From a virus (lineage: Duplodnaviria; Heunggongvirae; Uroviricota; Caudoviricetes): a stretch of DNA of 64,000 bases. Positions within the stretch are counted from its first letter, which is position 1; the number at the start of each line of letters is the position of its first letter. The stretch lies in the IMG/VR virus record IMGVR_UViG_3300044623_001231; one strand, given 5' to 3'. The position numbers were made by a program, and so were the translations under genes. The notes beneath the pieces are model-generated. The model saw only the letters and a program-made list of their open reading frames with translations. It searched no databases and was not told where the DNA came from. This document shows positions 15,153 through 29,971 of this stretch, piece after piece.

Positions 15153-15764
15153 TTAAGTTATAAATTCAGTATCTTTCTTTAAGTCAACATAGACTCCTTT
15201 ATAAATACCTTCATTAAATTTATTAATAACCTTTTCAACCAACATTGTTGGAGTACCTGTTATTTGGTACAATCCATCCATTAGTTTAATGACATCTCTA
15301 GTTGAATCTATTGGATTAATTGGTGTAATTGTTTCTACTTCCAGTACACCATCTATATATTTTTGAAATTTTAAATAATTTTTAATTATTAACATATTAT
15401 CACTGTTAATTTCAACAACTACACCCTTTGATAAATCTCTGAATGTGTTCCATAAATACCAATTAACACATTTTAAATCAACTAATATTCTATTCTTAAA
15501 TGCCAATCTATATCCATCATCTAAAATTTCTTTCAATTTAGGTAAATCGGGACTATCAGATACCAAACAAACATCAGCATCCCAAGTTTTAGGATTTGAT
15601 GGGTTGTTTAAATACTCAGCAAATCCACCAGCTAAATAAACTTCATATTCAGATAAATCATGCAGCTCTGATAGTTCTTTGTACCACATAGTTAATGTGT
15701 ACAACTCAGGTCTACCCCACACAAGGGTAGTTGTTAAATTATCAAATCTACAAAAAAAATCCAT
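15153..15764 (-). CDS. hypothetical protein, possible minimal Pol-beta-type nucleotidyltransferase
   Basis: YLAGGFAEYL...WDADV resembles the GG...DxD NTase motif (weak). Confidence 0.4.
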   Translation of the reverse strand: MDFFCRFDNLTTTLVWGRPELYTLTMWYKELSELHDLSEYEVYLAGGFAEYLNNPSNPKTWDADVCLVSDSPDLPKLKEILDDGYRLAFKNRILVDLKCVNWYLWNTFRDLSKGVVVEINSDNMLIIKNYLKFQKYIDGVLEVETITPINPIDSTRDVIKLMDGLYQITGTPTMLVEKVINKFNEGIYKGVYVDLKKDTEFIT

Positions 15765-16258: not shown

Positions 16259-16996
16259 TTATACTTTTTCGTTTGTTGGTTTTAACCACATACCATCTTT
16301 AAATATTAGGTTTAAAAAACCAGGGATGATTTCATCTACATCCATAAGTAATCTAAGACTTTTTGGTGTATCATATTTCATCATCTTCATTAACTCTTCT
16401 CTAATTCTTTCACCACTAACAGTTTGTTCTAATTTCTTTAGGATGTTAGGTTGTTTCATTGCTTCCCAAATATCATCACTCATAACAAAATCCTTTGTGA
16501 TTGTAAATCTTAATGCTCTTAGAATTCTCAAAGGGTCATCCATCATAGTTTGTTTAGCTGGTAATGGAGTTCTTAATAAACCTATTTTTAAATCATCAAT
16601 TCCACCAAATATATCTATAAGGTTTCCATCAATATCCTCAGCCATAGCGTTTAATGTAAAATCTCTTCTAAGTAAATCATCTTCCAATGTTCCCAATTCT
16701 AAGATTGGTCTACGAGTTCCCTCAACATATCCAACTTCCTTTCTTGCCATTACGAAATCAGCAACCATCCCAGAGTATTTATGTTCTTTTGGGAACTTAG
16801 CTCTGATAGTAAAACACTCAGGTGTACTTAGGAATATTTCAAAATCATTTACAGTCATCCAATCTGTCATTATTTGAAATCCACTCTCTACAGTCCAATC
16901 TAAGTTGTCCAAAACAAATGTGAAGTCAATATCTTTTGTATCAACCCCTAACAACCTATCTCTAACACAACCCCCTACTTTGAATATCTTTGGCAT
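16259..16996 (-). CDS. cca: tRNA nucleotidyltransferase (CCA-adding, poly(A)-polymerase head domain), minimal
   Basis: MPKIFKVGGCVRDRLLGVDTKDIDF head-domain signature. Confidence 0.7.
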   Translation of the reverse strand: MPKIFKVGGCVRDRLLGVDTKDIDFTFVLDNLDWTVESGFQIMTDWMTVNDFEIFLSTPECFTIRAKFPKEHKYSGMVADFVMARKEVGYVEGTRRPILELGTLEDDLLRRDFTLNAMAEDIDGNLIDIFGGIDDLKIGLLRTPLPAKQTMMDDPLRILRALRFTITKDFVMSDDIWEAMKQPNILKKLEQTVSGERIREELMKMMKYDTPKSLRLLMDVDEIIPGFLNLIFKDGMWLKPTNEKV

Positions 16997-17096
16997 AACC
17001 TATCTTTTTTATTACATAGTAAATATACAAAATATAATTGATATATCCTAATATTTTAAAAGAAAAAGAGCAACTATTTTAGCTGCTCTTTATCAA

Positions 17097-18242
17097 TTAG
17101 TGAGAATCTCCCACATCATTTTTCTCTCCATAAATAAGGTAGTCAGGGTTTATAACCTTAGCTACTTTATTACGTTCACCTGTATGGTATTTGATTACAA
17201 TTCCTTCATGTGGAACCTTAGTACCTTCAATCATATTTTTAAATACGAATTTATCTTGCACCTCTTGCGACCAATTTCCAAAATGTAATATTTCAACATA
17301 AGGTAATTGTAATATATCTTTAATCATCAATTTAGAATTGATAGGACTTAAATACTCACCATTCTCCTTTACATCGAATCCTACAAACTCCATTTCTGTC
17401 AAACCATAATCATAGTTCTTTTGAATTCCGGCCCCATAGATTTCTCCATAGATTGTGATTCCATCTCCAATTTCTGGTTCCATTGAATTACTTTTAACGT
17501 ATTCCCATAACCTCTTTTTGATTTCATATTTATCCGCAATTTGGTACCAAACATTGGTATCATAGAAACCTTGAGAATCCGAACCCTTTTCTACATTATG
17601 TGAACCAACTACAAATTCATACCCAATCCACTTATCAGCAAACCCAATGAACTTCTTAACCTTATCCCAAAATGATAATTTAAGTTTCTTAACAATACCA
17701 TATCTAGCATTAGTACCATGTATCTTACGAGTAATTTCAACGGTATCTTCTTCAGTAAACATTCCATCCACATTTTTTAGGTTTGGGAATTTATAGTAGA
17801 TGTGGAAGTTTGGATTGTCTTGGTATCTAATCTTTCTACCTCCGGCTAATTGGATTTGTTTAACTGGTGGTTCGTATTTAGTAATTCCTAAGAATTCCAT
17901 ACAATCATCACCTTCGCCTAAATCAAAATCACCCATAGTAACTCTACCACGTAGGTATTTCATTGGGATAATTAAACATTCAGAATAAACACCTCTTAAT
18001 TTTACAGTCCTAACTCTATTACCTTTACGAAGATAGTTAGTTACACCCATCTCTTCAGAAAGTTCTTCAGGTATAACCGCATCAGTTGTAGCAATGATTG
18101 TTTCATCACCAATAGTAAACTCTCCCTTCTTAGTGATTGCATTCCAACCACCAGCAACTACCAATTCGATGTTATCAGCACCCTCAATTGGATTTACTTC
18201 TTTGATTTTTGCTATGTAGCAAACTGAATTTTCGTTTTTCAT
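17097..18242 (-). CDS. RNA ligase, Rnl2 family
   Basis: motif I KIHGTN; GEIYGAGIQKNYDY matches Rnl2 GEFAGPGIQKNVDY. Confidence 0.7.
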   Translation of the reverse strand: MKNENSVCYIAKIKEVNPIEGADNIELVVAGGWNAITKKGEFTIGDETIIATTDAVIPEELSEEMGVTNYLRKGNRVRTVKLRGVYSECLIIPMKYLRGRVTMGDFDLGEGDDCMEFLGITKYEPPVKQIQLAGGRKIRYQDNPNFHIYYKFPNLKNVDGMFTEEDTVEITRKIHGTNARYGIVKKLKLSFWDKVKKFIGFADKWIGYEFVVGSHNVEKGSDSQGFYDTNVWYQIADKYEIKKRLWEYVKSNSMEPEIGDGITIYGEIYGAGIQKNYDYGLTEMEFVGFDVKENGEYLSPINSKLMIKDILQLPYVEILHFGNWSQEVQDKFVFKNMIEGTKVPHEGIVIKYHTGERNKVAKVINPDYLIYGEKNDVGDSH

Positions 18243-18245
18243 TTC

Positions 18246-18659
18246 TTATAATTTTATTTCAAATCTATTTCTCATTCTTTCAACTGCTTCAGTTGGAACA
18301 CCATGTTGGTTTACACCACCATGTCTATTCTCAACTACTAATGAGTAAACCTGATATCCATAGGTTTTTGCTAAGGTAAAATATATATCCATCTCCCATT
18401 TTTGAGTAAAAGTGTTAGATACTACTATTTTTCTATAAAATTGGTCATTAACTAATGAATCCTTCATATAAGTTTCTACTGTATTTCTACAAAACTCATG
18501 TGCATCTTTTAGTTTAGAACCATCGAAGTTATAGTTACCTTCCTTATCATAAAAATACTTATCAGCTTCACATACTAAGAAATCACTTTCTACTATTGAA
18601 TTTGCTAATGTTGATTTACCACTACCTGGCAATCCTCTTAATAAAAATAATTCTTTCAT
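18246..18659 (-). CDS. polynucleotide kinase-like P-loop kinase
   Basis: GLPGSGKSTLA Walker A; 137 aa; adjacent to the RNA ligase. Confidence 0.6.
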   Translation of the reverse strand: MKELFLLRGLPGSGKSTLANSIVESDFLVCEADKYFYDKEGNYNFDGSKLKDAHEFCRNTVETYMKDSLVNDQFYRKIVVSNTFTQKWEMDIYFTLAKTYGYQVYSLVVENRHGGVNQHGVPTEAVERMRNRFEIKL

Positions 18660-18662
18660 AAC

Positions 18663-19325
18663 TTACTTTTTATAGTTTTCTACAATTGTATGATGGTCTT
18701 TATCTAAAAATCCATCAATAGGTTGTTTATCTAATATTCTAACAATATCACTCATACTAATTGGTGATAAGTTGTTACCATCTACACCAACATCCATAAC
18801 TTTACCTCTACCAACTCTTCGGTTAGGTGGTAAGTGAACGTGTCCATGTAAGTGAGGAACTCCCTTACCTAAACCATCCCAACTTGCTATTGGGTAGTGC
18901 ATACACACAAAATGAGTTCCATCATGTTTACCACTACCATCGGGCCATTTGATACTCAAATCTAAATATTGATGAACTGAACTGAATATCTCAGCGATAC
19001 CATCTCTATTGTTAGCTATGTGGTGGTCGTGGTTACCTAATACTAAGTGAATGTTTTGACAAACAATTCGGTTTCTAAATTCAGCGATTGAATCAAATCC
19101 ACCAAAAGACCAGTCACCTAAGTGAATTAAGATATCATCTTGTCCAACTACTGCATTGATATTATTAACTAATACGGCATTCATTTGGTTCAATGTATCG
19201 AAATCTCTGAAATGGTTTGCACCAGCTCTATCCCATTGTGTTGTTCCTTTACAAATGTTAGCATGGTTATAGTGGGTATCACTTGTGAACCATACTTTTT
19301 GTCCTTTATTTAGTAATATCTTCAT
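18663..19325 (-). CDS. calcineurin-like metallophosphoesterase (2',3'-cyclic phosphodiesterase / 3'-phosphatase candidate)
   Basis: GDWSFGG and LGNHDHH motifs. Confidence 0.65.
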   Translation of the reverse strand: MKILLNKGQKVWFTSDTHYNHANICKGTTQWDRAGANHFRDFDTLNQMNAVLVNNINAVVGQDDILIHLGDWSFGGFDSIAEFRNRIVCQNIHLVLGNHDHHIANNRDGIAEIFSSVHQYLDLSIKWPDGSGKHDGTHFVCMHYPIASWDGLGKGVPHLHGHVHLPPNRRVGRGKVMDVGVDGNNLSPISMSDIVRILDKQPIDGFLDKDHHTIVENYKK

Positions 19326-19327
19326 AA

Positions 19328-19474
19328 CTATCTATCTTTTAATCGTTTGAATACTGCTTTTATGTTTGGTTCTTCTAATTTAAGTTTCAAAGATTGCCAT
19401 TTTGATTCTAAGAAATCATTGTACTCTTTCTCAGTTTTGAAACCCATTCTTTTCCAGTCCATTGTAGTTTTCAT
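19328..19474 (-). CDS. small protein (48 aa)
   Basis: read from the DNA: MKTTMDWKRMGFKTEKEYNDFLESKWQSLKLKLEEPNIKAVFKRLKDR. Confidence 0.35.
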   Translation of the reverse strand: MKTTMDWKRMGFKTEKEYNDFLESKWQSLKLKLEEPNIKAVFKRLKDR

Positions 19475-19553
19475 ATCTCTTAATCTTATACTCAAATGTA
19501 GTAAAAATTATTGACATATACAAGCTTTTTGCCGATTATTTTCAAAAAAGTTA
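19475..19553 (-). promoter_or_regulatory. promoter-leader cassette (leader truncated before the AAACCCCTAAAA block)
   Basis: atctcttaatcttatactcaaatgtag...caagctttttgccgattattttcaaaaaagttactaac. Confidence 0.5.
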
Positions 19554-19970
19554 CTAACTTCTATACCTTAAATCATTTTGCCTGTAAACACTTAATACTG
19601 AACCCTGTCCATGTGTTATTGCGAACTGATAACCATAATAATCATAGATAGTTGATGGGAAATTCTCAGTTAAACTATCTATTGGTTCAATTTCAGTTCC
19701 ATAATTTTGAGCCAATTCCCACATCAAATCCATAATATGTAATGGTTTATCTGAATATGTATTATAATGCCTTTCATCGTACTTACTTTGTTTCTCTAAA
19801 ACATCCAGCATTAAGTAATCAAATGTAGAATCATCACAAACACCATATCTTTGTAATAGTTTATTTGCTCTTTCCAATTGGATTCTATCCTTTAAGGCAA
19901 GTTTAGTAAAATAATCTACCATTGCCTTTTCACCTTCTGGACTTTTCATATATACCAATACGTCTTTCAT
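19554..19970 (-). CDS. hypothetical protein
   Basis: ORF track. Confidence 0.5.
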   Translation of the reverse strand: MKDVLVYMKSPEGEKAMVDYFTKLALKDRIQLERANKLLQRYGVCDDSTFDYLMLDVLEKQSKYDERHYNTYSDKPLHIMDLMWELAQNYGTEIEPIDSLTENFPSTIYDYYGYQFAITHGQGSVLSVYRQNDLRYRS

Positions 19971-19973
19971 AAG

Positions 19974-20588
19974 TTATAATGAATTAGGATAGTAAAGTAA
20001 TGTTGGATTTTTCTTTTGAATATCCGGTATCTCCTTACCACGTTCTTTTATTTGTTTATTAAATTCCATAACATCAAATCGTTTGGTAATCAAATGAACT
20101 CCATTTTTTGTTGGAATCTTTGTGATTATCTTACCACCATCATTTGGCTTAACCATCTCAATGATATTTGAAATCATATTTTGTATATGTTGTGATGTAG
20201 TATCAACATCAACAATCCATCTCTTCTCTTGTGTTTTTATTTGTCCAACAACTGAATCGAATAATCCCTTTTGATTATGGTTACCATTCTGAATACGTTG
20301 TGCCAAATCAACCATCATACTAAGTGATACATCAAAGTGATTTTGTTTCTGAACGTGAATGTAAGCTCTTGCCTTAAACATCTCACACATTTGAACAATC
20401 TCATCCCATCTACGGTCCAAATGGTCAATACTCTCAATACAATAAGTTTTGATTGTCCTTACTGATTGATGATTATCTCTTTCTCCTTCAGGTTGGTCCT
20501 TCTTTCGTTTGAAAACATATAACATATAAAAGTCACCCCGCTTTTCAAAGTTCAATAATGGCTTAATTAATTCTAAATTGTTTATCAT
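19974..20588 (-). CDS. hypothetical protein
   Basis: ORF track. Confidence 0.5.
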   Translation of the reverse strand: MINNLELIKPLLNFEKRGDFYMLYVFKRKKDQPEGERDNHQSVRTIKTYCIESIDHLDRRWDEIVQMCEMFKARAYIHVQKQNHFDVSLSMMVDLAQRIQNGNHNQKGLFDSVVGQIKTQEKRWIVDVDTTSQHIQNMISNIIEMVKPNDGGKIITKIPTKNGVHLITKRFDVMEFNKQIKERGKEIPDIQKKNPTLLYYPNSL

Positions 20589-20592
20589 AACT

Positions 20593-20943
20593 CTAAATTA
20601 AATGTAATAATATATAAGAAAGTTTATATCCAGCAAACGCACCTAATGCAGATGGAATTGGGAATACAATAAGTTGTCCGAAATCGGTAACATATTTAGG
20701 TCGATTTACAATCTTACCCATAAAAAAGTAATAAACTAAATATCCAATGAATACTGCTATATCAGTTCTAGTTGCGATAAATACAACTAACATTGCTCCT
20801 AAGAATCCAAAGATAAAGTTATCTCTAACACCTTCCCATATTTCTTGTGTGGTGCAATCTTTCCATTCCTTAATAATCTTTTTATACTTACTCATATCAA
20901 TTAATTTTAAGTCAAATATACAAAAAAAAATCGATATCTCCAA
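20593..20943 (-). CDS. membrane protein
   Basis: ORF track. Confidence 0.45.
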   Translation of the reverse strand: MEISIFFCIFDLKLIDMSKYKKIIKEWKDCTTQEIWEGVRDNFIFGFLGAMLVVFIATRTDIAVFIGYLVYYFFMGKIVNRPKYVTDFGQLIVFPIPSALGAFAGYKLSYILLHLI

Positions 20944-20981
20944 AGAAATACCGATTTATTTTTAATTAATTTTAACCAGTT

Positions 20982-21368
20982 TTATCCGTTGTGATTATGT
21001 ATATCAGATTCTTTAAAAATAAGGAATAAACCCATTGCTAATAGTATAGCTGATAGGATAATTCTATAAGGTGATTGAATCATAGCTCCATTCACACATT
21101 GTAACGAAAACAAACCAGCGGTATATATAGCTGTACTTTGTGGATACAATGCGTTGATGCGTTTAAATGTATTGGTTAACGAAAACCATAGTACACCCAA
21201 TAACAATATAACTCCAACAAATATTAGTGCCGGTAGATTTAACCCAACCCCAACTGCAATAACCATAACAGTTATTAGGGATAGAAATAAAGCTAACAGG
21301 TTTCTTAGAAAAAAAGTGGTACCACTAATTGTACCATTGAACTGAAAATACTTTTTGATTGCGTTCAT
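20982..21368 (-). CDS. membrane protein (4 TM)
   Basis: ORF track. Confidence 0.5.
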   Translation of the reverse strand: MNAIKKYFQFNGTISGTTFFLRNLLALFLSLITVMVIAVGVGLNLPALIFVGVILLLGVLWFSLTNTFKRINALYPQSTAIYTAGLFSLQCVNGAMIQSPYRIILSAILLAMGLFLIFKESDIHNHNG

Positions 21369-21597
21369 TTATTTGGATAGGAATTTATTAATGAGGTGTG
21401 GGTTTGAATCAGTAATCAAAAGATAACCAGGTTTCAAAGAAGGTTGAATTTCGTTGATGGTGGGCGACAGTTGACTCTAAAATGGTTGAATGTTGTGTAT
21501 CTTTCGTTATCGTAATCGTTCATCCGCTATGTGCCTCATAGTTGGCTTGTAAGATTATATTAAGAAAACTTCATCTCCCCCATTCCCTCAATATCTT

Positions 21598-22026
21598 TTA
21601 GATATTCGTATTTGAATTATGAATATCTAATTCGTTTTGAAGTTTCTCAACGTGCTCTTCGTATTGTTTAATGACTGCATCACGTTCGATTACATTCATT
21701 TCCACCTCTTTTACAGATACAACACTACCATATCTTTCAGTTTGTTTACCCTCAGAAACATCCATCTTTTTTAATTCTTTGATGATTCCTTTGATTTCCG
21801 CCATTTGGAAGATTTTATCATACACCGGAGCGTTTGCTCTATGTAATCTTGCTTTCAATTGAACCAACTCATCGGTTAATTCAGCAATATCCTCTAATTT
21901 TTTCTTCACACTATATCTACGAGGATTCCCCTCTTCAATAGAGTTTTGTGTTTGTAGGATTCTATAACACTCTTTAATTTCTGCCACCAACTTATTTTTG
22001 GCTTTAAGGGCTTGCTTTACGTTCAT
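21598..22026 (-). CDS. hypothetical coiled-coil protein
   Basis: ORF track. Confidence 0.5.
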   Translation of the reverse strand: MNVKQALKAKNKLVAEIKECYRILQTQNSIEEGNPRRYSVKKKLEDIAELTDELVQLKARLHRANAPVYDKIFQMAEIKGIIKELKKMDVSEGKQTERYGSVVSVKEVEMNVIERDAVIKQYEEHVEKLQNELDIHNSNTNI

Positions 22027-22042
22027 TTTTTTATGATTTTAT

Positions 22043-22426
22043 TTATTGGTTTCTATACATTTTTACAAAATCCTCCAAATCGGATTGAACTTTGTTAATC
22101 CTATCGAATGCGGCTTTAACCTCCACACCTGATACAATCTTATCTCTGAATTTATTTTCTAATTCATCAATTGTTCTTTTTAATAATTCGATTTGAGATA
22201 TTGTAAACTTTACTTCATCTGTTGATATCTTATTAACTCTATTAATCTCACCATCTATACGTTGATTAACTAACCTATCTCTGGATGATATTTCCCTATC
22301 CAATTCATCAATTAAATCCTCCAATTGGTTGATTTCTTTTTGTAATTTTCTACCTTTATAAAAGCTAAAACCAAATAGACCTATTGAAAATCCAAAACTC
22401 AGTAAAATTAAATTTGTGTAATCCAT
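22043..22426 (-). CDS. membrane-anchored coiled-coil protein
   Basis: ORF track. Confidence 0.5.
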   Translation of the reverse strand: MDYTNLILLSFGFSIGLFGFSFYKGRKLQKEINQLEDLIDELDREISSRDRLVNQRIDGEINRVNKISTDEVKFTISQIELLKRTIDELENKFRDKIVSGVEVKAAFDRINKVQSDLEDFVKMYRNQ

Positions 22427-22455
22427 GCTATCTTAAATTAAATTATTAATATTTT

Positions 22456-22541
22456 GCGGAAAGAGTAGGATTCGAACCCACGATACCTTTCAGTATGCCG
22501 GTTTTCAAGACCGGTGCAATCGACCAACTCTGCCATCTTTC
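22456..22541 (-). tRNA. tRNA-Ser(TGA), class II
   Basis: hand-folded: anticodon stem CCGGT/ACCGG, loop CTTGAAA, long variable arm, T-loop GGTTCGAATCC. Confidence 0.8.
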
Positions 22542-22548
22542 CTCTTTT

Positions 22549-22620
22549 GTAGTCCCACCGGGAATCGAACCCGACTTTTCAGGATGAAAACCTGATGACC
22601 TAACCGATAGTCGATAGGAC
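22549..22620 (-). tRNA. tRNA-Glu(TTC)
   Basis: anticodon stem TCAGG/CCTGA, loop TTTTCAT; acceptor with 2 GU pairs. Confidence 0.75.
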
Positions 22621-22760
22621 CATATAAATGTGAGCCAAACTTATGTACTTAGTGGGTGTACTCCGTTTATACTACTCTCACATTCAAATCAGTAGTGTGA
22701 TGTTAATGGTTGAAAGATATTTACCTTCCTTTCGGCCTACCATCGTGGCCCATGCGTTTG

Positions 22761-22836
22761 TGGAGCGAATAGCAGGAATCGAACCTGCATCTCCAACTTG
22801 GAAGGATGGAGTAATAAGCCATTATACGATATTCGC
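22761..22836 (-). tRNA. tRNA-Gly(TCC), CCA encoded
   Basis: acceptor GCGAATA/TATTCGC, loop CTTCCAA. Confidence 0.75.
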
Positions 22837-23791
22837 TTATATACGATGAGAATACTCGTTTTAATGAACCAGCTTTATAAGGGTTATTGGTTGCCTTAAT
22901 TTCCACTTCCTTTTGAGAAGTACCAATTCAATGTGGGTAAGTAATGTCCTACCACTCATAAAGTTACAAACTACTCTCTTTGTAGTCCACCTCTTCGAAT
23001 CTGCCGACCCGATTAACACCTCGCGATGCTAGAAGTTTTTCGAAAGAATCACATTTCCCTTGAGAGGATTTGTGGCAGGGAACAGCTCCCTACTATGTAC
23101 ACACCTTTCGTCTGCAACTGGTAACCTCTTTCTCTAGTTTGTTTTTTGATTTTGCGTCAATAGGCAAATTGAGTTTTGGTTTGTAGATAAATTCAAGTAG
23201 TGGATTACCACTAGCTCCGCCCCATTTTGAAGAACGGAATACTATACTACTCGATACGTTATCTCTAACGTCATACTTTAAGATTACTTCAGTACCCACT
23301 CTTTGGTGAGAGGTAGGTAAGGATGATAACAACACCACTTGTACTTCATCATACCTTTCGGTTTTAAGTAACCTTTAATATTGAATCACGCAATGATAAG
23401 GAGAGATTAAGTCCTCACTTCTTGCATTAATTCTATGGGTTATTTTTATTGGTGTTCCCACCTCAACTGAAGTATCTACAATACCCCAGTCATCATTCCA
23501 TTTCGCTACGGAGTTACCCTCACTACATTCAGGAACAATGATATCCCACTTGCCTACTCAAGCTCCATCCGAAGATGAAACCGCAAACCCCTCTAAACCA
23601 AAGAGATTCACTTTATCCTACTTTCGTAGTTTATTTAACGACCATAGGCGGCCGTTATACACTATGTAGAACAAGTCTACTATGTGCAATATTTTCAATA
23701 CTTTCAAAGAACTAATTTTCTTTTTCAAAGATACGAATAATTTTTCAATTATCCTAATCTTTTTTTAATTATTTTTCAATAATTTATTTAG

Positions 23792-23864
23792 TTGCGGGAG
23801 AGGGAATCGAACCCCCGACCTCAAGGTTATGAGCCTTGCGAGCTACCGCTGCTACTATCCCGCT
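23792..23864 (-). tRNA. tRNA-Met(CAT), initiator-like
   Basis: loop CTCATAA; 3' end CCCGCAAC with a 1:72 mismatch and A73, as in bacterial tRNA-fMet. Confidence 0.7.
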
Positions 23865-23966
23865 ATATATGTTTAAGAACTTAATTTTCAACTTCTATGT
23901 ATATAAGTATATACAAATATACCAAAACGTAAAAAAAATCGAAAAATAATTTAATTTTTTTATTGT

Positions 23967-24040
23967 GGACCAGAATGGATTCGAACCATTGACCTACGCA
24001 TTATGAGTGCGGTGCTCTAACCAACTGAGCTACAAGTCCA
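23967..24040 (-). tRNA. tRNA-Met(CAT), elongator-like (or Ile2)
   Basis: GTAGCTCAGTTGGTTAGAGCAC ... CTCATAA; resembles elongator Met. Confidence 0.7.
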
Positions 24041-24174
24041 AAACGAGAGAGGGTTCGGGTCTTTCAAGGTTTCTGATTAAGTGCAATGAGTGACGTCTTT
24101 CTACTATAAACCTTTTTTCGAAAATTAATACACTCTACCTCTTAATTACAGCTTCACTCCCTCTCTATTTTTTA

Positions 24175-24360
24175 CTACTTTGCGTCTGCTTCAGTAGTAA
24201 TTTCTGCTACAGTTGAATCAGTTGCGATTACAGCTGATGAATCCGTTGCTACTGCAGTTGAGTCTGTTGTTGACGTTTCTGTGTTTGATTGTTTGTTTCC
24301 ACAAGATGCCATAACTACCGTTACTGCTACTACTGTTAAAATTGCCATTACTTTTTTCAT
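24175..24360 (-). CDS. small lipoprotein (lipobox VMASC) with an S/T/A/D-rich tail
   Basis: MKKVMAILTVVAVTVVMASC signal; internal start of the tracked ORF. Confidence 0.45.
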   Translation of the reverse strand: MKKVMAILTVVAVTVVMASCGNKQSNTETSTTDSTAVATDSSAVIATDSTVAEITTEADAK

Positions 24361-24418
24361 AACTTTTGTTTTAATTGTTTTAAATTGATAAATAAACATA
24401 GGAACCTACCTATATTTG

Positions 24419-24513
24419 TAATCATAATTGGATTCGAACCAATTCCAGCTTTACAATAAAGAACCTTTCGATTCAACCTTTGTGAGGTGCCGCCAACCAA
24501 TGGCCTTATGATT
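24419..24513 (-). ncRNA. atypical tRNA-like element (95 nt)
   Basis: perfect 7-8-bp acceptor (AATCATA(A)) and perfect T-arm ATTGG-TTCGAAT-CCAAT, but no canonical anticodon arm could be folded. Confidence 0.45.
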
Positions 24514-24581
24514 ATTTAAATGAACTATACAAATATACGAAATGTTTTTCACAATTCCAAATATTTTTTCATTTATTTTTG

Positions 24582-24655
24582 TGGAGGATATCGGAGTCGA
24601 ACCGATGACCCCCTGCGTGCAAGGCAGGTGCTCTAGCCAGCTGAGCTAATCCCCC
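24582..24655 (-). tRNA. tRNA-Ala(TGC)
   Basis: G3:U70 identity pair, loop CTTGCAC. Confidence 0.8.
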
Positions 24656-24752
24656 ATTAATCACATCGTACCGGCATTCTGGTTCTCGCTAACAGAAATT
24701 CCATCTCATTTAACCCAGTCTGTGCGATGTGGGTACCGGAGGATGTGATTTG

Positions 24753-24831
24753 TAGTCAGAGCCGGATTCGAACCGGATAAGCAACCACTTTATTGGATTC
24801 GGGAACCGTCCCTCATTACGCCCATCTGACC
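24753..24831 (-). ncRNA. atypical tRNA-like element (79 nt) with an extra GGGACGGTTCCC hairpin
   Basis: acceptor GGTCAGA/TCTGACT and T-loop TTCGAAT present; D/anticodon region non-canonical. Confidence 0.4.
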
Positions 24832-24906
24832 ATTTTAAACATCCAGTCTGACCTTCCAGACAGTACAAGTCGGTATTAATTTCACGTGCCGTTTTGTAGT
24901 GAATGT

Positions 24907-25149
24907 TTAATATCCTATTTGTTCTTTAATCTCCCATTGCTTTTCAATAGAAATTCTTTCAATTCTCTCTACTGGTACAAACCCATCCAATCCCTTATCT
25001 TTAACATCTTCAAAATGTTCGATAGTATCTAAACGAAATCCGAACTTATATCTGATGTATTGGAACTTTTCACCATCCCAATATGCAGTATGGTTATTTC
25101 TGCAAAATCCATTGTACCAACCTTCTTTCATTTCAATTTTTGGTATCAT
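24907..25149 (-). CDS. hypothetical protein embedded in the tRNA array
   Basis: ORF track, 80 aa. Confidence 0.45.
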   Translation of the reverse strand: MIPKIEMKEGWYNGFCRNNHTAYWDGEKFQYIRYKFGFRLDTIEHFEDVKDKGLDGFVPVERIERISIEKQWEIKEQIGY

Positions 25150-25163
25150 ACTTTTTGTTTTAG

Positions 25164-25237
25164 TGAACCCATCAGGAATCGAACCTGAAACCTACACATT
25201 AGAAGTGTGTTGCTCTATCCAATTGAGCTATGGGTCC
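25164..25237 (-). tRNA. tRNA-Arg(TCT)
   Basis: anticodon stem ACACA/TGTGT, loop CTTCTAA. Confidence 0.8.
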
Positions 25238-25451
25238 AAATTCACACTCTATTTTATCCAACTACAAGTGTGGTGGTTGTCCCCATAGCGGGCCCATTGG
25301 GCCTTTGATTGGGTTAGGAATAAACCAATTAAACTCTTTCGGAGCAGATGGTTAATCTGGATAGAGCCTTTCCCTATCAGAAGTCCCATATGGCCATCAC
25401 ACCACTTCTCATCATATTGGACATACTATCCGTTGTATGTTACGGAACGTG

Positions 25452-25523
25452 CGGTCTCACCGGGAATCGAACCCGGCATACCGCCGTGACAGGGCGGCGT
25501 TATAGCCGATTAACTATGGGACC
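25452..25523 (-). tRNA. tRNA-Asp(GTC)
   Basis: anticodon stem CCGCC/GGCGG, loop CTGTCAC, G73. Confidence 0.8.
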
Positions 25524-25609
25524 AAAAGTGATAGGTGACCCTCCTATCGTGAAATGATATATCATTTCTTTTCTTTATAGAATCCGAAGATACTGTAGGA
25601 ACATTTTTG

Positions 25610-25682
25610 AGCCTCCGGTCGGGCTCGAACCAACCACCTGCTGATTACAAATCAGCTGCTCTACCAAATGAGCTACGGAGGC
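25610..25682 (-). tRNA. tRNA-Thr(TGT)
   Basis: perfect acceptor GCCTCCG, loop TTTGTAA. Confidence 0.8.
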
Positions 25683-25843
25683 AAAATTAGGAAAGCTACC
25701 TGATATCTTTACAGCCGAATTAGGTACGGATTTCTACATTTAGAATGTTCCTCAAATTCAAACCCCTTTTATGTCCGTACTATGTGGAGGATAAAAAACC
25801 ACATTAGTTGATAAAAAATGAATTCTTCACCTCTTTCCTATTG

Positions 25844-25929
25844 TACCGATGGGCGGACTCGAACCGCCACGAGCATTACTACCCAAGGGATTTTAAGTCC
25901 CTCGTGTCTACCATTTCACCACATCGGCA
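25844..25929 (-). tRNA. tRNA-Leu(TAA), class II
   Basis: anticodon stem AGGGA/TCCCT, loop CTTAAAA, long variable arm. Confidence 0.8.
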
Positions 25930-26045
25930 TTTTAGATTTTCAACATGTCAAAGAACAAAACTGTCTCTCTTTTACTATGTAAAGATACAACATAATTTTG
26001 AATTATACAAGCTTTTTTAAAAACTTTTATAATTTTTGTGGAGGT

Positions 26046-26070
26046 GGCGAGAGTCGAACTCGCGTCCAAA
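26046..26070 (-). other. orphan tRNA 3' half (T-arm GCGAG-TTCGACT-CTCGC plus acceptor CACCTCC-A) with no matching 5' half within 100 nt
   Basis: shares the CACCUCCA 3' end with tRNA-Phe; pseudo-tRNA, split tRNA or recombination scar. Confidence 0.4.
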
Positions 26071-26488
26071 TACGGATTTAATAAACATCATTCACAAGCT
26101 TAGTACATTTTTCTTAATGTACAAAATAGATAAAGATTTATACATTCATTATCATTAATGTTTCCAACTCGATTTCGGGTTCAGTTGGGTTCCACCTGAG
26201 TTCACATTCTATTTTAAGTCCCACGATGTGTGCGGGAGGGATTATGCTGCTACAGCGTAATCGGCACCAACGAAAGACATAGCATCTTCGAAGGTCATTG
26301 TAGATAATTCTACTGCGTTTATTGTTCGATAGGTATTTACGGATTTCCATCTAACCCGGCTTGCAACTTACCAATTCATCGTACCTGTCAAAACCAGGCA
26401 CCCCCATAAATCAAAGAACTTATCTTTTTTGATACTTCAAATATACAAAATCTTTTTGGTATTTCCAAATTTAATTTCAATTATTTTG

Positions 26489-26562
26489 TGACCCCGAATG
26501 GATTCGAACCATTGACTCCCTCATTAAAAGTGAGGTGCTCTAACCAACTGAGCTACGAGGTC
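26489..26562 (-). tRNA. tRNA-Lys(TTT)
   Basis: anticodon stem CCTCA/TGAGG, loop CTTTTAA. Confidence 0.8.
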
Positions 26563-26568
26563 ATTCTG

Positions 26569-26638
26569 AGGTTAAGGTTGGAATCGAACCAACTCCGTAG
26601 ATTTTGCAGACCTACCGGCCTCCAAGACCATCCTAACC
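26569..26638 (-). tRNA. tRNA-Cys(GCA)
   Basis: loop CTGCAAA, short D-loop, 70 nt. Confidence 0.7.
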
Positions 26639-26642
26639 ATTC

Positions 26643-27095
26643 CTATCTACAAGTGTAATCTGCTGCCCTTGTTGCGATTTGCATATCAGGTTTAAGATTA
26701 ACTTCATATCCTAATGAGTTTGCCCAACCCTTTGTAGATTGTACTAACTTAGAAGAGTAATGCTTTTCATTTAAGTTGTAATCTAAATCAATCTGAATAG
26801 TTACACCTAAGTTACTCCTTAACCATTCAGCCACTTCAATAGAATATTCAGTTTCTTTCCACAATCTTGTCCACTTATCTAAAATCTTATCTACTTTTAG
26901 TTTGTGATTAATATAGTGTACACCTGTATTACCATACCTATACGCAATTACAATTGAATATGATGTACAATCTGATAAGTTTTGAGAATCACACCCAATA
27001 TGAATATCCGCATGTGGACATTCTTTTAATATATCAATCGTATGTTGTACGATATCTACCACTTCCCCATTTACTTTTCTAAAAACTTTTACCAT
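26643..27095 (-). CDS. hypothetical protein (possible RNase H-like fold) inside the tRNA array
   Basis: 150-aa ORF flanked by tRNA-Cys and tRNA-Phe. Confidence 0.5.
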   Translation of the reverse strand: MVKVFRKVNGEVVDIVQHTIDILKECPHADIHIGCDSQNLSDCTSYSIVIAYRYGNTGVHYINHKLKVDKILDKWTRLWKETEYSIEVAEWLRSNLGVTIQIDLDYNLNEKHYSSKLVQSTKGWANSLGYEVNLKPDMQIATRAADYTCR

Positions 27096-27121
27096 TACTA
27101 TTAATATTAATTATTAAATTG

Positions 27122-27194
27122 TGGAGGTGAGTGGAATCGAACCACTTCCTCTGGATTTTCAGTCCAGCGCTTCTACCAAGTTAGCTTCACCTCC
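27122..27194 (-). tRNA. tRNA-Phe(GAA)
   Basis: perfect acceptor GGAGGTG/CACCTCC, loop CTGAAAA. Confidence 0.85.
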
Positions 27195-27199
27195 TTTTG

Positions 27200-27270
27200 C
27201 ACGGGTAGAAAGATTCGAACTTCCATCTAAGCTTTTGGAGAGCCGTATGCTACCATTGCACCATACCCGT
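27200..27270 (-). tRNA. tRNA-Trp(CCA)
   Basis: loop CTCCAAA, G73. Confidence 0.7.
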
Positions 27271-27276
27271 ATTTTG

Positions 27277-27348
27277 TACACTTAGAGAGATTCGAACTCC
27301 CATTATCCGGTTCGTAGCCGGAGGTTCTATCCGTTGAACTATAAGTGC
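27277..27348 (-). tRNA. tRNA-Arg(ACG)
   Basis: anticodon stem TCCGG/CCGGA, loop CTACGAA. Confidence 0.8.
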
Positions 27349-27352
27349 ATTG

Positions 27353-27434
27353 TACCCAAGGAGAGACTCGAACTCTCAAGCCTTTCGGCCACGGTTTCTA
27401 AGACCGCTGTGTCTACCAATTCCACCACTCGGGC
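27353..27434 (-). tRNA. tRNA-Leu(TAG), class II
   Basis: loop CTTAGAA, variable arm GGCCGAAAGGC. Confidence 0.75.
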
Positions 27435-27441
27435 ATTGTTG

Positions 27442-27515
27442 GGTGATTAATGGGATTCGAACCCATCCTATCAGAATCACAATCTGACGTGCTAACCGCT
27501 AACACTATAAACACC
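27442..27515 (-). tRNA. tRNA-His(GTG) with encoded G-1:C73
   Basis: anticodon stem TCAGA/TCTGA, loop TTGTGAT; extra 5' G pairs with C73. Confidence 0.8.
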
Positions 27516-27572
27516 ATGTTGTGTATAATATATTATCCATTTACCCCATATATCTGAGTTTTATATAATATA

Positions 27573-27643
27573 TTGTACATTGTTGTGTGTATGAGGTTCG
27601 AACTCATTTGGTCATCCTTATGAGAGATAACTCTTTTCCACTA
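27573..27643 (-). tRNA. third CAT-anticodon tRNA (Ile2/Met candidate) with a weak D-arm
   Basis: loop CTCATAA in a GU-rich stem; T-arm ATGAG-TTCGAAC-CTCAT. Confidence 0.45.
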
Positions 27644-27840
27644 AGCCACACAATTTAAAAGAAGTATAACCAGAATTTTGTGTAAACCTATCATTTGTCT
27701 TTTTGCCCCAACCTTGTCCGAATTGCTCACCTTCATAGACTATTTTGGGTTGCATCCTCAGTAGTAAAACGAATTTCTTCTCCTACTTTAAGCAATGATG
27801 TTCTGAGTTTCCTCTCCGTAGAGCGATAGGAACTTCTTTG

Positions 27841-27928
27841 CGGAGAGTATAGGATTCGAACCTATGGAACCCTTACGAGTTCAACACCTTAGCAGGGTGC
27901 CGCTTTAAACCAACTCAGCCAACTATCC
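27841..27928 (-). tRNA. tRNA-Ser(GCT), class II
   Basis: loop CTGCTAA, long variable arm. Confidence 0.75.
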
Positions 27929-27933
27929 AATTG

Positions 27934-28007
27934 TTGGTAATATAGGAATCGAACCTATAACCTTTCGCGTATCAGGCGAATGCTCTAACCAATTGAGCTA
28001 ATTACCA
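27934..28007 (-). tRNA. tRNA-Ile(GAT)
   Basis: anticodon stem TTCGC/GCGAA, loop CTGATAC. Confidence 0.8.
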
Positions 28008-28085
28008 ATAAGTTGCAGGATATCGCTTAACCTGCGGTGTTGATATCATTACACACCTTTGATGTTACCACCAGCGATTTTTTTG

Positions 28086-28169
28086 TGGGAGCAGAAGGAT
28101 TCGAACCTACTACCTATGCGGGTTACCAGATTTACAGTCTGGCGCCTAACCAATTCGTGCGTTACTCCC
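28086..28169 (-). tRNA. tRNA-Tyr(GTA), class II
   Basis: anticodon stem CCAGA/TCTGG, loop CTGTAAA. Confidence 0.8.
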
Positions 28170-28275
28170 AATGGCGTTCCATATTACTCACATCTGATAA
28201 CCATATTGGGTTACCCACTTAATCTTACAACAGCTTTAAACTGAGAGATTGTAAGAATGTGTATGGAACATTTTG

Positions 28276-28349
28276 TAGAAGATATAGGATTCGAACCTAT
28301 GACCCTTTGGATGTAAACCAAATGCTCTAACCAACTGAGCTAATCTTCT
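28276..28349 (-). tRNA. tRNA-Val(TAC)
   Basis: anticodon stem TTTGG/CCAAA, loop TTTACAT. Confidence 0.8.
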
Positions 28350-28354
28350 ATTTG

Positions 28355-28430
28355 TCTAGATGGTAGGATTCGAACCTACGTGCTCTCGCGTCCAAGGCGA
28401 GCGAGAAAAACCTGACTCCTCTACATCTAG
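28355..28430 (-). tRNA. tRNA-Pro(TGG)
   Basis: anticodon stem CTCGC/GCGAG, loop CTTGGAC, 11-nt D-loop. Confidence 0.75.
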
Positions 28431-28436
28431 TTATTG

Positions 28437-28507
28437 TTATCCCTCGAGGACTCGAACCTCGACTGCCTGAATCAAAGTCAGGTGTCCTGCCATTAGACCA
28501 AAGGATA
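28437..28507 (-). tRNA. tRNA-Gln(TTG)
   Basis: anticodon stem CCTGA/TCAGG, loop CTTTGAT. Confidence 0.8.
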
Positions 28508-28544
28508 ATTTGTGTTACCAATATTTCAAAGAACTATACTTTTG

Positions 28545-28616
28545 CGGGGAGGGAGAATTTCGAAATCTCGACCTGATGATTAACAGTCATCTGCTCTTCC
28601 TCTGAGCTACCACCCC
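28545..28616 (-). tRNA. tRNA-Asn(GTT)
   Basis: anticodon stem GATGA/TCATC, loop CTGTTAA. Confidence 0.75.
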
Positions 28617-28630
28617 AATAAATTAAAAAA

Positions 28631-28659
28631 CCCCTAACTAAATTTTCATCAGTTAGGGG
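28631..28659 (-). terminator. intrinsic terminator (9-bp stem CCCCTAACT / AGTTAGGGG) plus T6 on the minus strand, separating the protein genes from the tRNA array
   Basis: perfect inverted repeat seen in the sequence. Confidence 0.7.
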
Positions 28660-28695
28660 TTCTTAAATACTTTACTATTTAATCTCTACATTATA

Positions 28696-29315: not shown

Positions 29316-29915
29316 TTATTTAATATTAATATTCCAACTGATTGAAATACGTGGTACTTCGGTTGAAGTGTACTCTAAAGTCCCATGCATTAACCACGAT
29401 GGGAAAGATATAAGTAAACCTTCTTTTGGTTGGATATGTAATTGAGGTGCCAACTCCTGATTTGTATTATTTGGTAATAACTTAACCAATGTGTTTATCG
29501 GTGAATCTATAACAAACTCACCACCTTTATCATTTTCCAAATCAACATACAATACGGCTGAGAACCCATTCGATGGTTGCCCAGCTCCCAAATGGTCATG
29601 CATCTCTTGATAACATCCCTTAGTTCCAATCGTCATCCAACAATCATCTACTGAAAATTTGGTTGTAGTAAATTCACCATCTACTAAATACTGAGATGTG
29701 TGATGTAATATCAAATCCTGCAAATAATCAGGGTAGAACTTCCGTTCAACTTCACAAAATATGTTTGTTCTCGTATTACACTTCCATTGGTTTGTATTAA
29801 ACAAATCATCATTTTCCTTTATGTACTTATACACATCTGCTTTCAATCGATGATGTAATTCCGCATCAATTCTGTCAAAGTATATTGGTGTTGGGAATAG
29901 GTTTTGTATTGGCAT
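29316..29915 (-). CDS. putative 2OG-Fe(II)-oxygenase-superfamily / cupin hydroxylase
   Basis: HDHLG ... WLMHGT His-x-Asp ... His arrangement (weak). Confidence 0.4.
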   Translation of the reverse strand: MPIQNLFPTPIYFDRIDAELHHRLKADVYKYIKENDDLFNTNQWKCNTRTNIFCEVERKFYPDYLQDLILHHTSQYLVDGEFTTTKFSVDDCWMTIGTKGCYQEMHDHLGAGQPSNGFSAVLYVDLENDKGGEFVIDSPINTLVKLLPNNTNQELAPQLHIQPKEGLLISFPSWLMHGTLEYTSTEVPRISISWNINIK

Positions 29916-29971
29916 AACTTATTTTATTTATACAAATATACAAAAATTAATTCACATATCCAAATAAAAAA

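Follow-up and report, generated by a model that had tools for sequence, protein, structure and literature searches.

A complete tRNA array with tmRNA and GOLLD RNA near an Rnl5-type RNA ligase operon in an uncultivated jumbo phage: tRNA supply and a plausible repair cassette

Introduction

Does a phage that encodes tRNAs for all 20 amino acids also encode the means to finish and to mend them? The question is raised by positions 16,259 to 28,616 of a 64,000-nucleotide stretch (the window, below) of the IMG/VR virus record IMGVR_UViG_3300044623_001231 (Caudoviricetes), where a tRNA array, a tRNA nucleotidyltransferase gene and an operon for a metallophosphoesterase, a P-loop kinase and an ATP-dependent RNA ligase lie on one strand. 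An earlier note, made from the letters of the DNA, had read these genes as a self-contained tRNA supply-and-repair system. The supply part of that reading stood, and the CCA-adding enzyme as a part of repair did not, maturation being the simpler role for it beside CCA-less tRNAs. We lean towards a translation and RNA island of a jumbo phage, in which tRNA supply is joined to end repair by the phosphoesterase, the kinase and a ligase of the Rnl5 type.

One window protein was found 100% identical on 91 contigs, and the two near-identical contigs shown are 270,754 and 271,043 bp long, so the source is a jumbo phage of about 271 kb, which is uncultivated. Megablast of the whole region against GenBank phages returned short tRNA matches only, and a close cultured relative is therefore absent at the DNA level. 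For comparison we used relatives of the ligase (64-81% identity) at 80 retrievable loci (L001-L080) on IMG/VR contigs of up to 292 kb; neighbours were counted within the fetched flanks, and these counts are lower bounds because many contigs are short.

A complete and minimal tRNA set

ARAGORN called one tmRNA and 25 tRNA genes, and all of them lie between 22456 and 28616 on the minus strand. The tRNAs serve all 20 amino acids, three of them have a CAT anticodon, and 24 of the 25 scored at or above the Rfam RF00005 gathering score of 29 bits (range 33-75 bits). Folding by hand had given 24 canonical tRNAs, right in strand and in amino acids and one short in number; a third CAT tRNA had been recognised there, as had the fMet-like and elongator CAT tRNAs. 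The genes, called by ARAGORN with Rfam scores, follow in the direction of transcription; tRNA-Gly is the one with an encoded CCA.

28626-28664, minus strand: strong terminator-like hairpin directly upstream of the first tRNA
28544-28616, minus strand: tRNA-Asn (GTT), first gene of the array (Rfam 56.7 bits)
28436-28507, minus strand: tRNA-Gln (TTG)
28354-28430, minus strand: tRNA-Pro (TGG)
28275-28349, minus strand: tRNA-Val (TAC)
28085-28169, minus strand: tRNA-Tyr (GTA) (Rfam 39 bits)
27933-28007, minus strand: tRNA-Ile (GAT)
27840-27928, minus strand: tRNA-Ser (GCT)
27582-27654, minus strand: non-canonical CAT tRNA, candidate tRNA-Ile2 or second Met (Rfam 24.7 bits)
27441-27514, minus strand: tRNA-His (GTG)
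27352-27434, minus strand: tRNA-Leu (TAG)
27276-27348, minus strand: tRNA-Arg (ACG)
27199-27270, minus strand: tRNA-Trp (CCA)
27121-27194, minus strand: tRNA-Phe (GAA)
26568-26638, minus strand: tRNA-Cys (GCA) (Rfam 33.1 bits)
26488-26562, minus strand: tRNA-Lys (TTT)
25843-25928, minus strand: tRNA-Leu (TAA)
25609-25682, minus strand: tRNA-Thr (TGT)
25451-25523, minus strand: tRNA-Asp (GTC)
25163-25237, minus strand: tRNA-Arg (TCT)
24581-24655, minus strand: tRNA-Ala (TGC)
23965-24039, minus strand: CAT tRNA of elongator type, Met or Ile2 (Rfam 68.8 bits; fold)
23791-23864, minus strand: initiator-like CAT tRNA (Rfam 50.2 bits; fold)
22761-22836, minus strand: tRNA-Gly (TCC), 6 nt past the GOLLD RNA
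22549-22621, minus strand: tRNA-Glu (TTC)
22456-22542, minus strand: tRNA-Ser (TGA), last gene of the array

By inspection, the CAT tRNA at 23791-23864 has a 1:72 mismatch, an A11:U24 pair and two G:C pairs closing the anticodon stem. The non-canonical CAT tRNA at 27582-27654 keeps its cloverleaf through compensatory changes in L003, L009, L037, L040 and L019, and its site just upstream of tRNA-His is the same in related phages. Inspection and folding did not separate either of the two non-initiator CAT tRNAs into Met or Ile2.

The array holds 23 distinct anticodons, with one U34 tRNA for each four-codon box and a G34 or U34 tRNA for each two-codon box, CGN codons being served by ACG and Trp by the CCA anticodon. 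Full coverage of the boxes depends on four-codon reading by U34, on the pairing of I34 with CGU/C/A and on lysidine modification of one CAU tRNA for AUA. On those terms the set, judged from its anticodons, is a minimal complete decoding set, and the complete 20-amino-acid supply claimed before was found, in minimal form. Among 14,853 phage codons, AUA accounts for 23.6 and CGG for 0.5 per 1000, third positions are strongly A/U, and 47% of codons are Watson-Crick cognate to the tRNA set. Since AUA is common and a UAU anticodon is absent, self-sufficiency of the set would require one CAT tRNA to be a lysidine-dependent tRNA-Ile2. The near independence from host tRNAs proposed earlier was overstated: the set still depends on the host for aminoacyl-tRNA synthetases, RNase P and modification enzymes (TilS, TadA), and neither a TilS nor a TadA gene was found in the window.

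CCA ends and the nucleotidyltransferase

The CCA end is missing from the genes of 24 of the 25 tRNAs and of the tmRNA, and C-A-A follows the discriminator base. The same C-A-A trailer stands after 529 of 826 tRNAs in the related loci, no CCA class occurs among their 12 commonest trailers, and the trailer is present even past the single encoded CCA; it looks like a conserved 3'-processing signal rather than chance. CCA must therefore be added to these tRNAs and the tmRNA after transcription, and the window has a gene for a candidate enzyme.

16259-16996, minus strand: class II tRNA nucleotidyltransferase of 245 aa, head and neck only, predicted to be CCA-adding (Pfam, PHROG, NCBIfam)

The protein matched the PolyA_pol head (1.3e-18) and the PolyA_pol_RNAbd neck (7e-5) of Pfam and the PHROG family 'tRNA nucleotidyltransferase' (2e-58), and CCA-adding enzymes were its best matches in the PDB and NCBIfam (CCA models 6.9e-31 versus PcnB 1.7e-21), which bears out the CCA-adding call at the family level. 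The motifs GGCVRD...DID (GGxVRD..DxD), RRD and DDPLR (E/DDxxR) were recognised by inspection. The 245 residues match the first half of full-length enzymes only, far below the equivalog cut-offs, and the body and tail tRNA-binding domains of the class II CCA enzymes of about 400 aa are absent.

Given CCA-less tRNAs, maturation is the simplest job of the phage nucleotidyltransferase, and end repair is not needed to explain the gene. We consider it very probable, from the gene content, that the enzyme matures the CCA-less phage tRNAs, and would assign it to maturation first and to repair only secondarily. Its inclusion in a repair block did not hold: a terminator separates it from the ligase, and a CCA enzyme gene is found near the ligase in only 1 of the 80 related loci. 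The locus offers a clean natural example of a full, CCA-less, minimal decoder set with the phage's own miniature CCA enzyme.

tmRNA, GOLLD RNA and other RNAs of the array

Within the coordinates of the array we found a tmRNA, a GOLLD RNA and an RNase H-like open reading frame (ORF), all missed in the earlier note, and two tRNA-like RNAs.

26438-26469, minus strand: phage promoter TTTGGAAAT...TTGTATATTTG upstream of the tmRNA (motif scan)
26036-26405, minus strand: tmRNA with the predicted tag AVELSTMTFEDAMSFVGADYAVAA (ARAGORN; Rfam RF00023, 115 bits versus a gathering score of 47)
22843-23715, minus strand: GOLLD RNA of about 870 nt (Rfam RF02032, 257 bits, E=5e-72)
24412-24512, minus strand: tRNA-like RNA tl1 (fold), with its own promoter at 24530-24561
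24752-24840, minus strand: tRNA-like RNA tl2 of 89 nt, aberrant in its anticodon arm (ARAGORN, relaxed threshold only)
26643-27095, minus strand: RNase H-like protein of 150 aa, PF04308 (YkuK/DUF458) (Pfam 2e-17), within the tRNA array

Phage tmRNAs are already known. The 3' end of this one reads ...CCACAA with no encoded CCA, and its long predicted tag ends in DYAVAA, with a similar tag in L019; homologues lie near the ligase at three loci (L019, L048, L053). No SmpB gene was seen among the window ORFs scanned.

The 3' domain of the GOLLD RNA (22843-23254) matched the full model, positions 1-416, at 257 bits against a gathering score of 150. The 5' domain runs from 23255 to about 23715, close to the -7 box of the RNA's own promoter at 23726-23733, and both this domain and the promoter are conserved with L011 and L019. 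At about 870 nt from the promoter to the 3' end, close to the total of about 800 nt expected of GOLLD RNAs with their variable 5' domain, the RNA lies inside the phage tRNA array between the initiator-like Met tRNA and tRNA-Gly, the one tRNA that encodes CCA. GOLLD was found near the ligase in about 10 of the 80 loci, with both domains conserved in L011, L019, L048, L053, L066 and L069-74. Previous studies placed GOLLD in tRNA arrays of phages and mycobacteria, where it follows a Met tRNA and has tRNAs linked to it, its function being unknown (PMC12286853, PMC6582537; Morgado 2020 is cited there on GOLLD in tRNA arrays). The present RNA shares with those arrays its position downstream of a Met tRNA, the tRNA directly after it and the conserved 3' domain, and stands apart through a new host-lineage setting, with Bacteroidota-type promoters, and through the recurrence of GOLLD in this clade no more than 10 kb away from an Rnl5 cassette and a tmRNA. 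With its promoter defined and its neighbouring tRNAs known, a GOLLD RNA from a phage with promoters of Bacteroidota type should aid studies of GOLLD function. Taken together, the tRNAs, the tmRNA and the GOLLD RNA almost certainly form a functional island.

The tl1 RNA folds with an acceptor stem of 7 bp, a D arm, a T arm and a long variable arm; its 'anticodon' loop is 5 nt long, the triplet in that loop is not conserved, and a tRNA-type N-CAA trailer follows on the 3' side. Across four sequences 8 of its 28 pairs show compensatory changes. A covariance model built from these seeds (the window, L044, L066, L069) gave 121-131 bits on its own seeds and about 25-34 bits on ordinary tRNAs; a search with it found no strong copies past the four seeds and one weak match. 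Clear copies are present in L044-46, L066 and L069-74, and tl1 is absent from Rfam. It could act as a decoy, scaffold or cofactor RNA. In tl2, the acceptor and T arms covary in L011, L013 and L050.

Homologues of the RNase H-like protein occur near the ligase in 4 of the 80 loci (L011, L019, L048, L053) and recur inside the arrays of some relatives; the protein may be an RNA-processing nuclease.

Two further spacers, both on the minus strand, are strongly conserved in sequence and have no Rfam match: a two-hairpin element at 28170-28274, between the Tyr and Val tRNAs, and an element of about 90 nt at 24040-24135, upstream of the elongator CAT tRNA. Both persist among phages with ligase proteins that share only about 65-80% identity with that of the window. 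At about 4090-4190 of L019, the Gly tRNA that follows GOLLD was not called by ARAGORN; compared with L011, its D-loop region is longer by an insertion of about 25 nt. Weak Rfam matches in the window (Plastid-ycf2 and similar) were antisense tRNA artefacts and were disregarded.

The phosphoesterase-kinase-ligase operon

The cassette lies on the strand of the array, 3.1 kb from it (19325 to 22456; about 3.5 kb had been estimated before, with the strand correct).

19493-19523, minus strand: promoter-like site 5' of the phosphoesterase-kinase-ligase operon (motif scan)
18663-19325, minus strand: calcineurin-type metallophosphoesterase, with a putative role in 3'-end healing (Pfam Metallophos 4.6e-8; PHROG 547, 7e-44)
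18246-18659, minus strand: Pnk-like P-loop kinase of 137 aa, putative 5'-OH polynucleotide kinase (AAA_33 1.7e-12)
17097-18242, minus strand: ATP-dependent RNA ligase of Rnl5 architecture (Pfam, PDB, NCBIfam)
17065-17091, minus strand: intrinsic-terminator-like hairpin at the end of the ligase operon, upstream of the CCA gene
13132-13701, minus strand: stand-alone HAD phosphatase of the 'Swiss Army Knife' RNA-repair family (HAD_SAK_2 1.1e-19)

Promoters and terminator-like hairpins split the region into separate units. The unit from the promoter at 20913-20944 comprises a membrane protein gene, ORF 19974-20588 and ORF 19554-19970; that from the promoter at 19493-19523 comprises the phosphoesterase, kinase and ligase genes and ends at the terminator at 17065-17091; and the CCA gene lies downstream of that terminator, outside the unit.

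The ligase had been assigned to the Rnl2 family. An RNA ligase it is, with an N-terminal OB domain (PHA02142, residues 10-94) and a PF09414 RNA_ligase domain (residues 167-364, 2e-14 in Pfam), and its matches point to another family: NgrRnl of Naegleria in the PDB (E=2.5e-17, versus E=0.31 for T4 Rnl2) and TIGR02306 DRB0094 (DraRnl) in NCBIfam (3.5e-29, 101.8 bits, below the equivalog cut-off of 151), versus 8e-5 and 22 bits (cut-off 197) for the Rnl2 model TIGR02307. The protein ends 17 residues past the adenylyltransferase domain, and the Rnl2 C-terminal domain is absent. Strict Rnl2 identity was rejected on these three grounds (the T4 Rnl2 value, the TIGR02307 score and the missing domain); by domain order and best matches, the ligase has the Rnl5 (DraRnl/NgrRnl) architecture. 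It shares with DraRnl and NgrRnl the N-terminal OB domain followed by a C-terminal adenylyltransferase (PMC4408790, PMC5397189), and differs from them in standing in an operon with end-healing enzymes beside tRNA arrays.

The kinase, which had been called a P-loop polynucleotide kinase, matched T4 Pnk weakly as a single sequence (E=0.13). A profile of 27 homologues matched the whole T4 Pnk kinase domain (1ly1, E=3e-5; 1ltq, 6e-5), followed by the Trl1-type kinase, PSTK, Pnkp1 and the CthPnkp kinase domain, which upholds the call with RNA kinases as the next matches; 4xrp and 4gp7 among these we take to be bacterial Pnkp/Pnkp1-type RNA repair structures. The 137-aa protein is the kinase domain alone, with the fusion to a DxDxT 3'-phosphatase absent.

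The calcineurin-type phosphoesterase was likewise recognised correctly before: besides the Metallophos match, it carries the DxH, GD, GNH[DE], H and GH motifs, and the metal-binding residues D16/H18, G70-D71, G97-N98-H99-D100, H143, G161-H162 and H164 are invariant or nearly so among 23 homologues. Against the PDB, the single sequence and the profile found only Aquifex aq_1665, an uncharacterised protein (2e-9 by profile). The HAD phosphatase reported near 13132 belongs to HAD_SAK_2 (PF18143, 71.6 bits versus a cut-off of 27.5), with the DxD nucleophile motif in an N-terminus that reads FLDNDGV. No Hen1 methyltransferase was found among the window ORFs scanned, nor were RlaP, RtcB or Rnl1 found in the window.

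These enzymes bear on whether the island serves anything beyond translation capacity. It might not: the tRNAs could replace host tRNAs lost to phage-induced RNA degradation and fit the A/U-rich codons, with the CCA enzyme maturing them, the tmRNA rescuing stalled ribosomes and the repair-type enzymes processing the island's own RNAs without any part in countering host defence. The minimal decoding set with its missing CCA ends, the codon match described above, the conserved non-tRNA RNAs (GOLLD, tRNA-like RNAs), which need processing, and the RNase H-like nuclease inside the array all fit such an island. However, tRNA maturation is not known to need a kinase, phosphoesterase or ligase, and none of the 25 tRNAs was called with an intron in the default ARAGORN scan of the window. 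Moreover, comparative genomics ties HAD_SAK_2 and Pnk-like kinases to RNA damage repair (PMC7824862). We regard translation capacity alone as quite unlikely; it overlaps with supply plus repair rather than excluding it.

Linkage of the cassette to tRNA arrays

The kinase gene was found near the ligase in 68 of the 80 loci, mostly directly upstream, the phosphoesterase gene in 41, and HAD_SAK_2 within 10 kb in 11. Of the 37 loci flanked by 6 kb or more on each side, 28 have at least eight tRNA genes in an array, always on the ligase strand, so that the co-occurrence of array and repair enzymes pointed out earlier extends through a large clade of phages. When all 80 loci are counted, 28 arrays are upstream of the ligase and 12 downstream, and in five loci the last tRNA ends 18-94 nt ahead of the cassette. 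Persistence of the linkage through rearrangements is suggestive of a functional link between cassette and array, and an array-linked conserved operon favours a role in RNA or tRNA metabolism. The loci are related, and the linkage is therefore not proof of such a link.

RNA or DNA as the substrate

Does the cassette repair RNA, or DNA? The question arises from the Rnl5 family itself and from the protein encoded just upstream of the operon.

19974-20588, minus strand: protein of 204 aa (o204) with a predicted primase-polymerase (AEP) fold (fold search; PHROG 14949, function unknown)

No sequence match to this ORF was found in Pfam, NCBIfam or the PDB, and the fold search alone was informative. 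A shallow alignment (83-95% identical) gave an AlphaFold model with a pLDDT of 50, which was discarded, and diversity was obtained through the homologues of a 33%-identical relative. The model places the AEP catalytic core fold on the protein, with invariant DxD and TxxGxH motifs, and the primase-polymerase fold is predicted with high confidence. The structures compared with it included 2iru and 2fao, which we take to be bacterial LigD. More than 6,000 homologues are present in metagenomes.

With this protein, the phosphoesterase-kinase-Rnl5 operon could be a module for the repair of DNA ends or nicks: after ribonucleotide addition by the polymerase at gaps or ends, the phosphoesterase and kinase would make the termini ready for Rnl5, which would close the nick at the 3'-ribonucleotide. 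Operon and array would then share an accessory-gene region, and their nearness would be incidental. The module would resemble bacterial LigD (POL-PE-LIG) in combining a primase-polymerase fold, a phosphoesterase and a ligase favouring a 3'-ribonucleotide end, and would differ in that its phosphoesterase and ligase come from other families, a kinase is present and the genes are separate; Ku was not seen in the window.

Much of what speaks for DNA repair weighs at the same time against a role in tRNA repair. Rnl5 enzymes act on nicked duplexes and join a 3'-OH strand made of RNA (PMC5397189), a requirement from which a break in an anticodon loop differs. The physiological substrates of the family are uncharted (PMC4408790, PMC5397189), and its sole genetic study implicates DraRnl of Deinococcus in DNA 'ribo-patch' repair, leaving RNA repair open (PMC5397189); the family's only physiological evidence therefore points to DNA. 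The gene for o204 recurs near the cassette in 13 of the 80 loci. In Cellulophaga phage phi4:1, a homologue of the phosphoesterase (41% identical) has a Prim-Pol and DNA methylases as neighbours, and the 24.7-kb stretch inspected carries no annotation of an RNA ligase or a kinase; in Pakpunavirus the ligase lies near DNA replication genes. Further points weigh against tRNA repair from other sides: the nearest solved relative of the phosphoesterase (aq_1665) is uncharacterised, the adjacency of the CCA gene and the ligase is not conserved, and linkage within one clade could be inherited synteny of an accessory island, not selection. Near this ligase type in the three cultured-phage neighbourhoods inspected (Salmonella SE_PL, Pseudomonas EM, Synechococcus S-CREM1) there was no tRNA array or kinase, and the linkage is therefore not generalised beyond the clade of the window.

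On the other side, the phage has an ATP-dependent DNA ligase of its own (54862-55956), separate from the RNA ligase, which is therefore not needed for DNA joining, and the best matches of the kinase after T4 Pnk are RNA or tRNA kinases. The cassette is co-oriented with tRNA arrays at distances of 18 nt to 5.5 kb in the 28 of 37 well-flanked relatives despite rearrangements, whereas most relatives lack the AEP-fold gene near the cassette, and in the window this gene belongs to a separate transcription unit. Whether DNA-repair families fit these enzymes better than RNA-repair families thus has a divided answer, the ligase pointing in part to DNA repair through Rnl5 genetics and the kinase matching RNA kinases. 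We rate the DNA-repair module with incidental array nearness as somewhat unlikely, though a serious and credible rival, and put the chance that the cassette repairs RNA rather than DNA, as judged from gene content, at about even. Repair of tRNA by the phosphoesterase-kinase-Rnl5 cassette is plausible on the same grounds. The Rnl5-type operon beside tRNA arrays in dozens of related genomes makes tRNA a testable candidate substrate, and DNA ribo-patch repair with the AEP-fold partner is equally testable.

Proposed working of the island and its relation to known systems

For supply combined with repair, we propose the following course. The tRNAs would be transcribed from phage promoters and cut by host RNase P and 3'-processing enzymes, and the phage's 245-aa nucleotidyltransferase would then add CCA to the trimmed tRNAs. 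One CAU tRNA would serve as initiator, and another would probably be tRNA-Ile2, turned into an AUA reader by host TilS (lysidine), while the tmRNA would rescue stalled ribosomes. The phosphoesterase, perhaps with HAD_SAK_2, would remove 3'-phosphate or 2',3'-cyclic phosphate, the kinase would phosphorylate 5'-OH ends and Rnl5 would seal. The likeliest substrates would be phage or host tRNAs cut by host ribonucleases, their broken halves held together by stems. Supply and repair together would keep translation running after tRNA-directed host defence or host shut-off.

An integrated system might go further, with the non-decoding RNAs of the island (the nanocage RNA GOLLD, tl1 and tl2) helping to protect or repair tRNA: they could serve as decoys, as scaffolds or as a compartment that shields phage tRNAs from host tRNA nucleases, and the Rnl5 cassette would rejoin any that are cut. 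This reading draws on the recurrence of GOLLD, tmRNA and tRNA arrays at most 10 kb from the Rnl5 cassette in several sublineages, and on the own promoter and tRNA-type 3' trailer of tl1. We hold it to be very unlikely; if true, GOLLD, whose function has been unknown since 2009, and the Rnl5 family would both gain a physiological role.

Supply plus repair has well-known counterparts. The idea dates back to phage T4, whose Pnkp and Rnl1 reverse the damage done by the anticodon nuclease PrrC. The window has in common with T4 a 5' kinase, a 3' phosphoesterase and an ATP-dependent ligase in a tRNA-carrying phage; unlike in T4, the kinase is not fused to a DxDxT phosphatase, a binuclear metallophosphoesterase is adjacent, and the ligase is an Rnl5, a duplex-nick sealer, in contrast to the tRNA-specialised Rnl1. 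Bacterial Pnkp/Hen1 and Pnkp1-Rnl-Hen1 are RNA repair systems with the same trio of kinase, metallophosphoesterase and ligase, whereas the window has three separate ORFs and no detected Hen1.

In jumbo phages, tRNA provisioning and RNA repair have been described as a counter to host attack on translation (Iyer, Anantharaman, Krishnan, Burroughs & Aravind 2021, PMC7824862), and the sets listed there comprise many tRNAs along with ATP-dependent RNA ligases, polynucleotide kinases, HAD 'Swiss Army Knife' phosphatases, CCA-adding enzymes and, now and then, calcineurin-like phosphoesterases. The window has the same combination of tRNAs, ligase, kinase, HAD phosphatase, phosphoesterase and CCA enzyme, and differs in its separate phosphoesterase, kinase and Rnl5-type ligase genes in one array-tied operon of an uncultivated clade with Bacteroidota-type promoters. 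The self-contained supply-and-repair concept put forward earlier was therefore already on record; the locus is a good example and not a new principle, and the current picture of phage counters to tRNA-aimed defences is unchanged. What sets it apart is that the tRNA set is both complete and minimal, that nearly all of its genes lack CCA and a miniature CCA enzyme is encoded with them, that an Rnl5-type cassette keeps to the array in an uncultivated clade with Bacteroidota-type promoters, and that the spacers contain several conserved RNAs absent from Rfam.

Promoters and host

The window has a GC content of about 32%, and all its ORFs of at least 130 aa with a family match lie on the minus strand. 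A motif scan found an extended promoter, TTTGGATAT-N-TTTCGTATATTTG, common to 17 minus-strand sites (for example 60181-60212, 45748-45779, 29933-29964 and 14450-14481). Promoters of this -33 TTTG / -7 TAnnTTTG type are presumably characteristic of Bacteroidota, and they support a member of that phylum as the host; of the Flavobacteriia host supposed earlier, the phylum agrees with the -33/-7 promoters, which do not indicate the class. The conserved extended promoter is useful for the mapping of transcription units and for inference of the host phylum.

Other genes of the window

Further products of the window are GroEL, thymidylate synthase, MoxR and vWA proteins, beside those of many auxiliary metabolic genes. 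A short distance upstream of the array lie genes for an SPFH/Band-7 protein (31518-32450, minus strand) and a 2OG-Fe(II) oxygenase (29316-29915, minus strand); SPFH genes were likewise found near the ligase in 6 related loci and, in Synechococcus phage S-CREM1, at about 7 kb from the ligase. SPFH modules have been proposed as RNA-repair scaffolds.

Four minus-strand genes could, from their family matches, be further RNA-end or NAD-related counter-defence genes.

44744-45154, minus strand: protein with a cREC_REC 'cyclic-phosphate processing receiver' domain (1.4e-21)
45761-46309, minus strand: NadR-like AAA_28 kinase
50537-51289, minus strand: second AAA_33/zeta-type kinase
13701-14186, minus strand: cytidylyltransferase-like protein

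ORF 15153-15764, considered as a Pol-beta-type nucleotidyltransferase from a GG...DxD pattern seen by eye, is left unassigned, its only match being a weak one to DUF6932 (E=0.019), with nothing in the PDB.

A tetrapyrrole and bilin gene set comprises a glutamyl-tRNA reductase (HemA-like; 2066-3079, minus strand), a ferredoxin-dependent bilin reductase (39638-40279, minus strand) and a heme oxygenase (40267-40779, minus strand), which is unusual outside cyanophages in a phage with Bacteroidota-type promoters. Genes of sugar-nucleotide and sialic-acid type encode an HMGL-like domain fused to a CMP-sugar cytidylyltransferase (4815-6527, minus strand), a GT29 sialyltransferase-like protein (6916-7509, minus strand) and an NAD-dependent epimerase (46306-47157, minus strand). 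In addition, the gene at 47162-48517 (minus strand) encodes a DNA methyltransferase with a C-terminal I-TevI-type DNA-binding domain.

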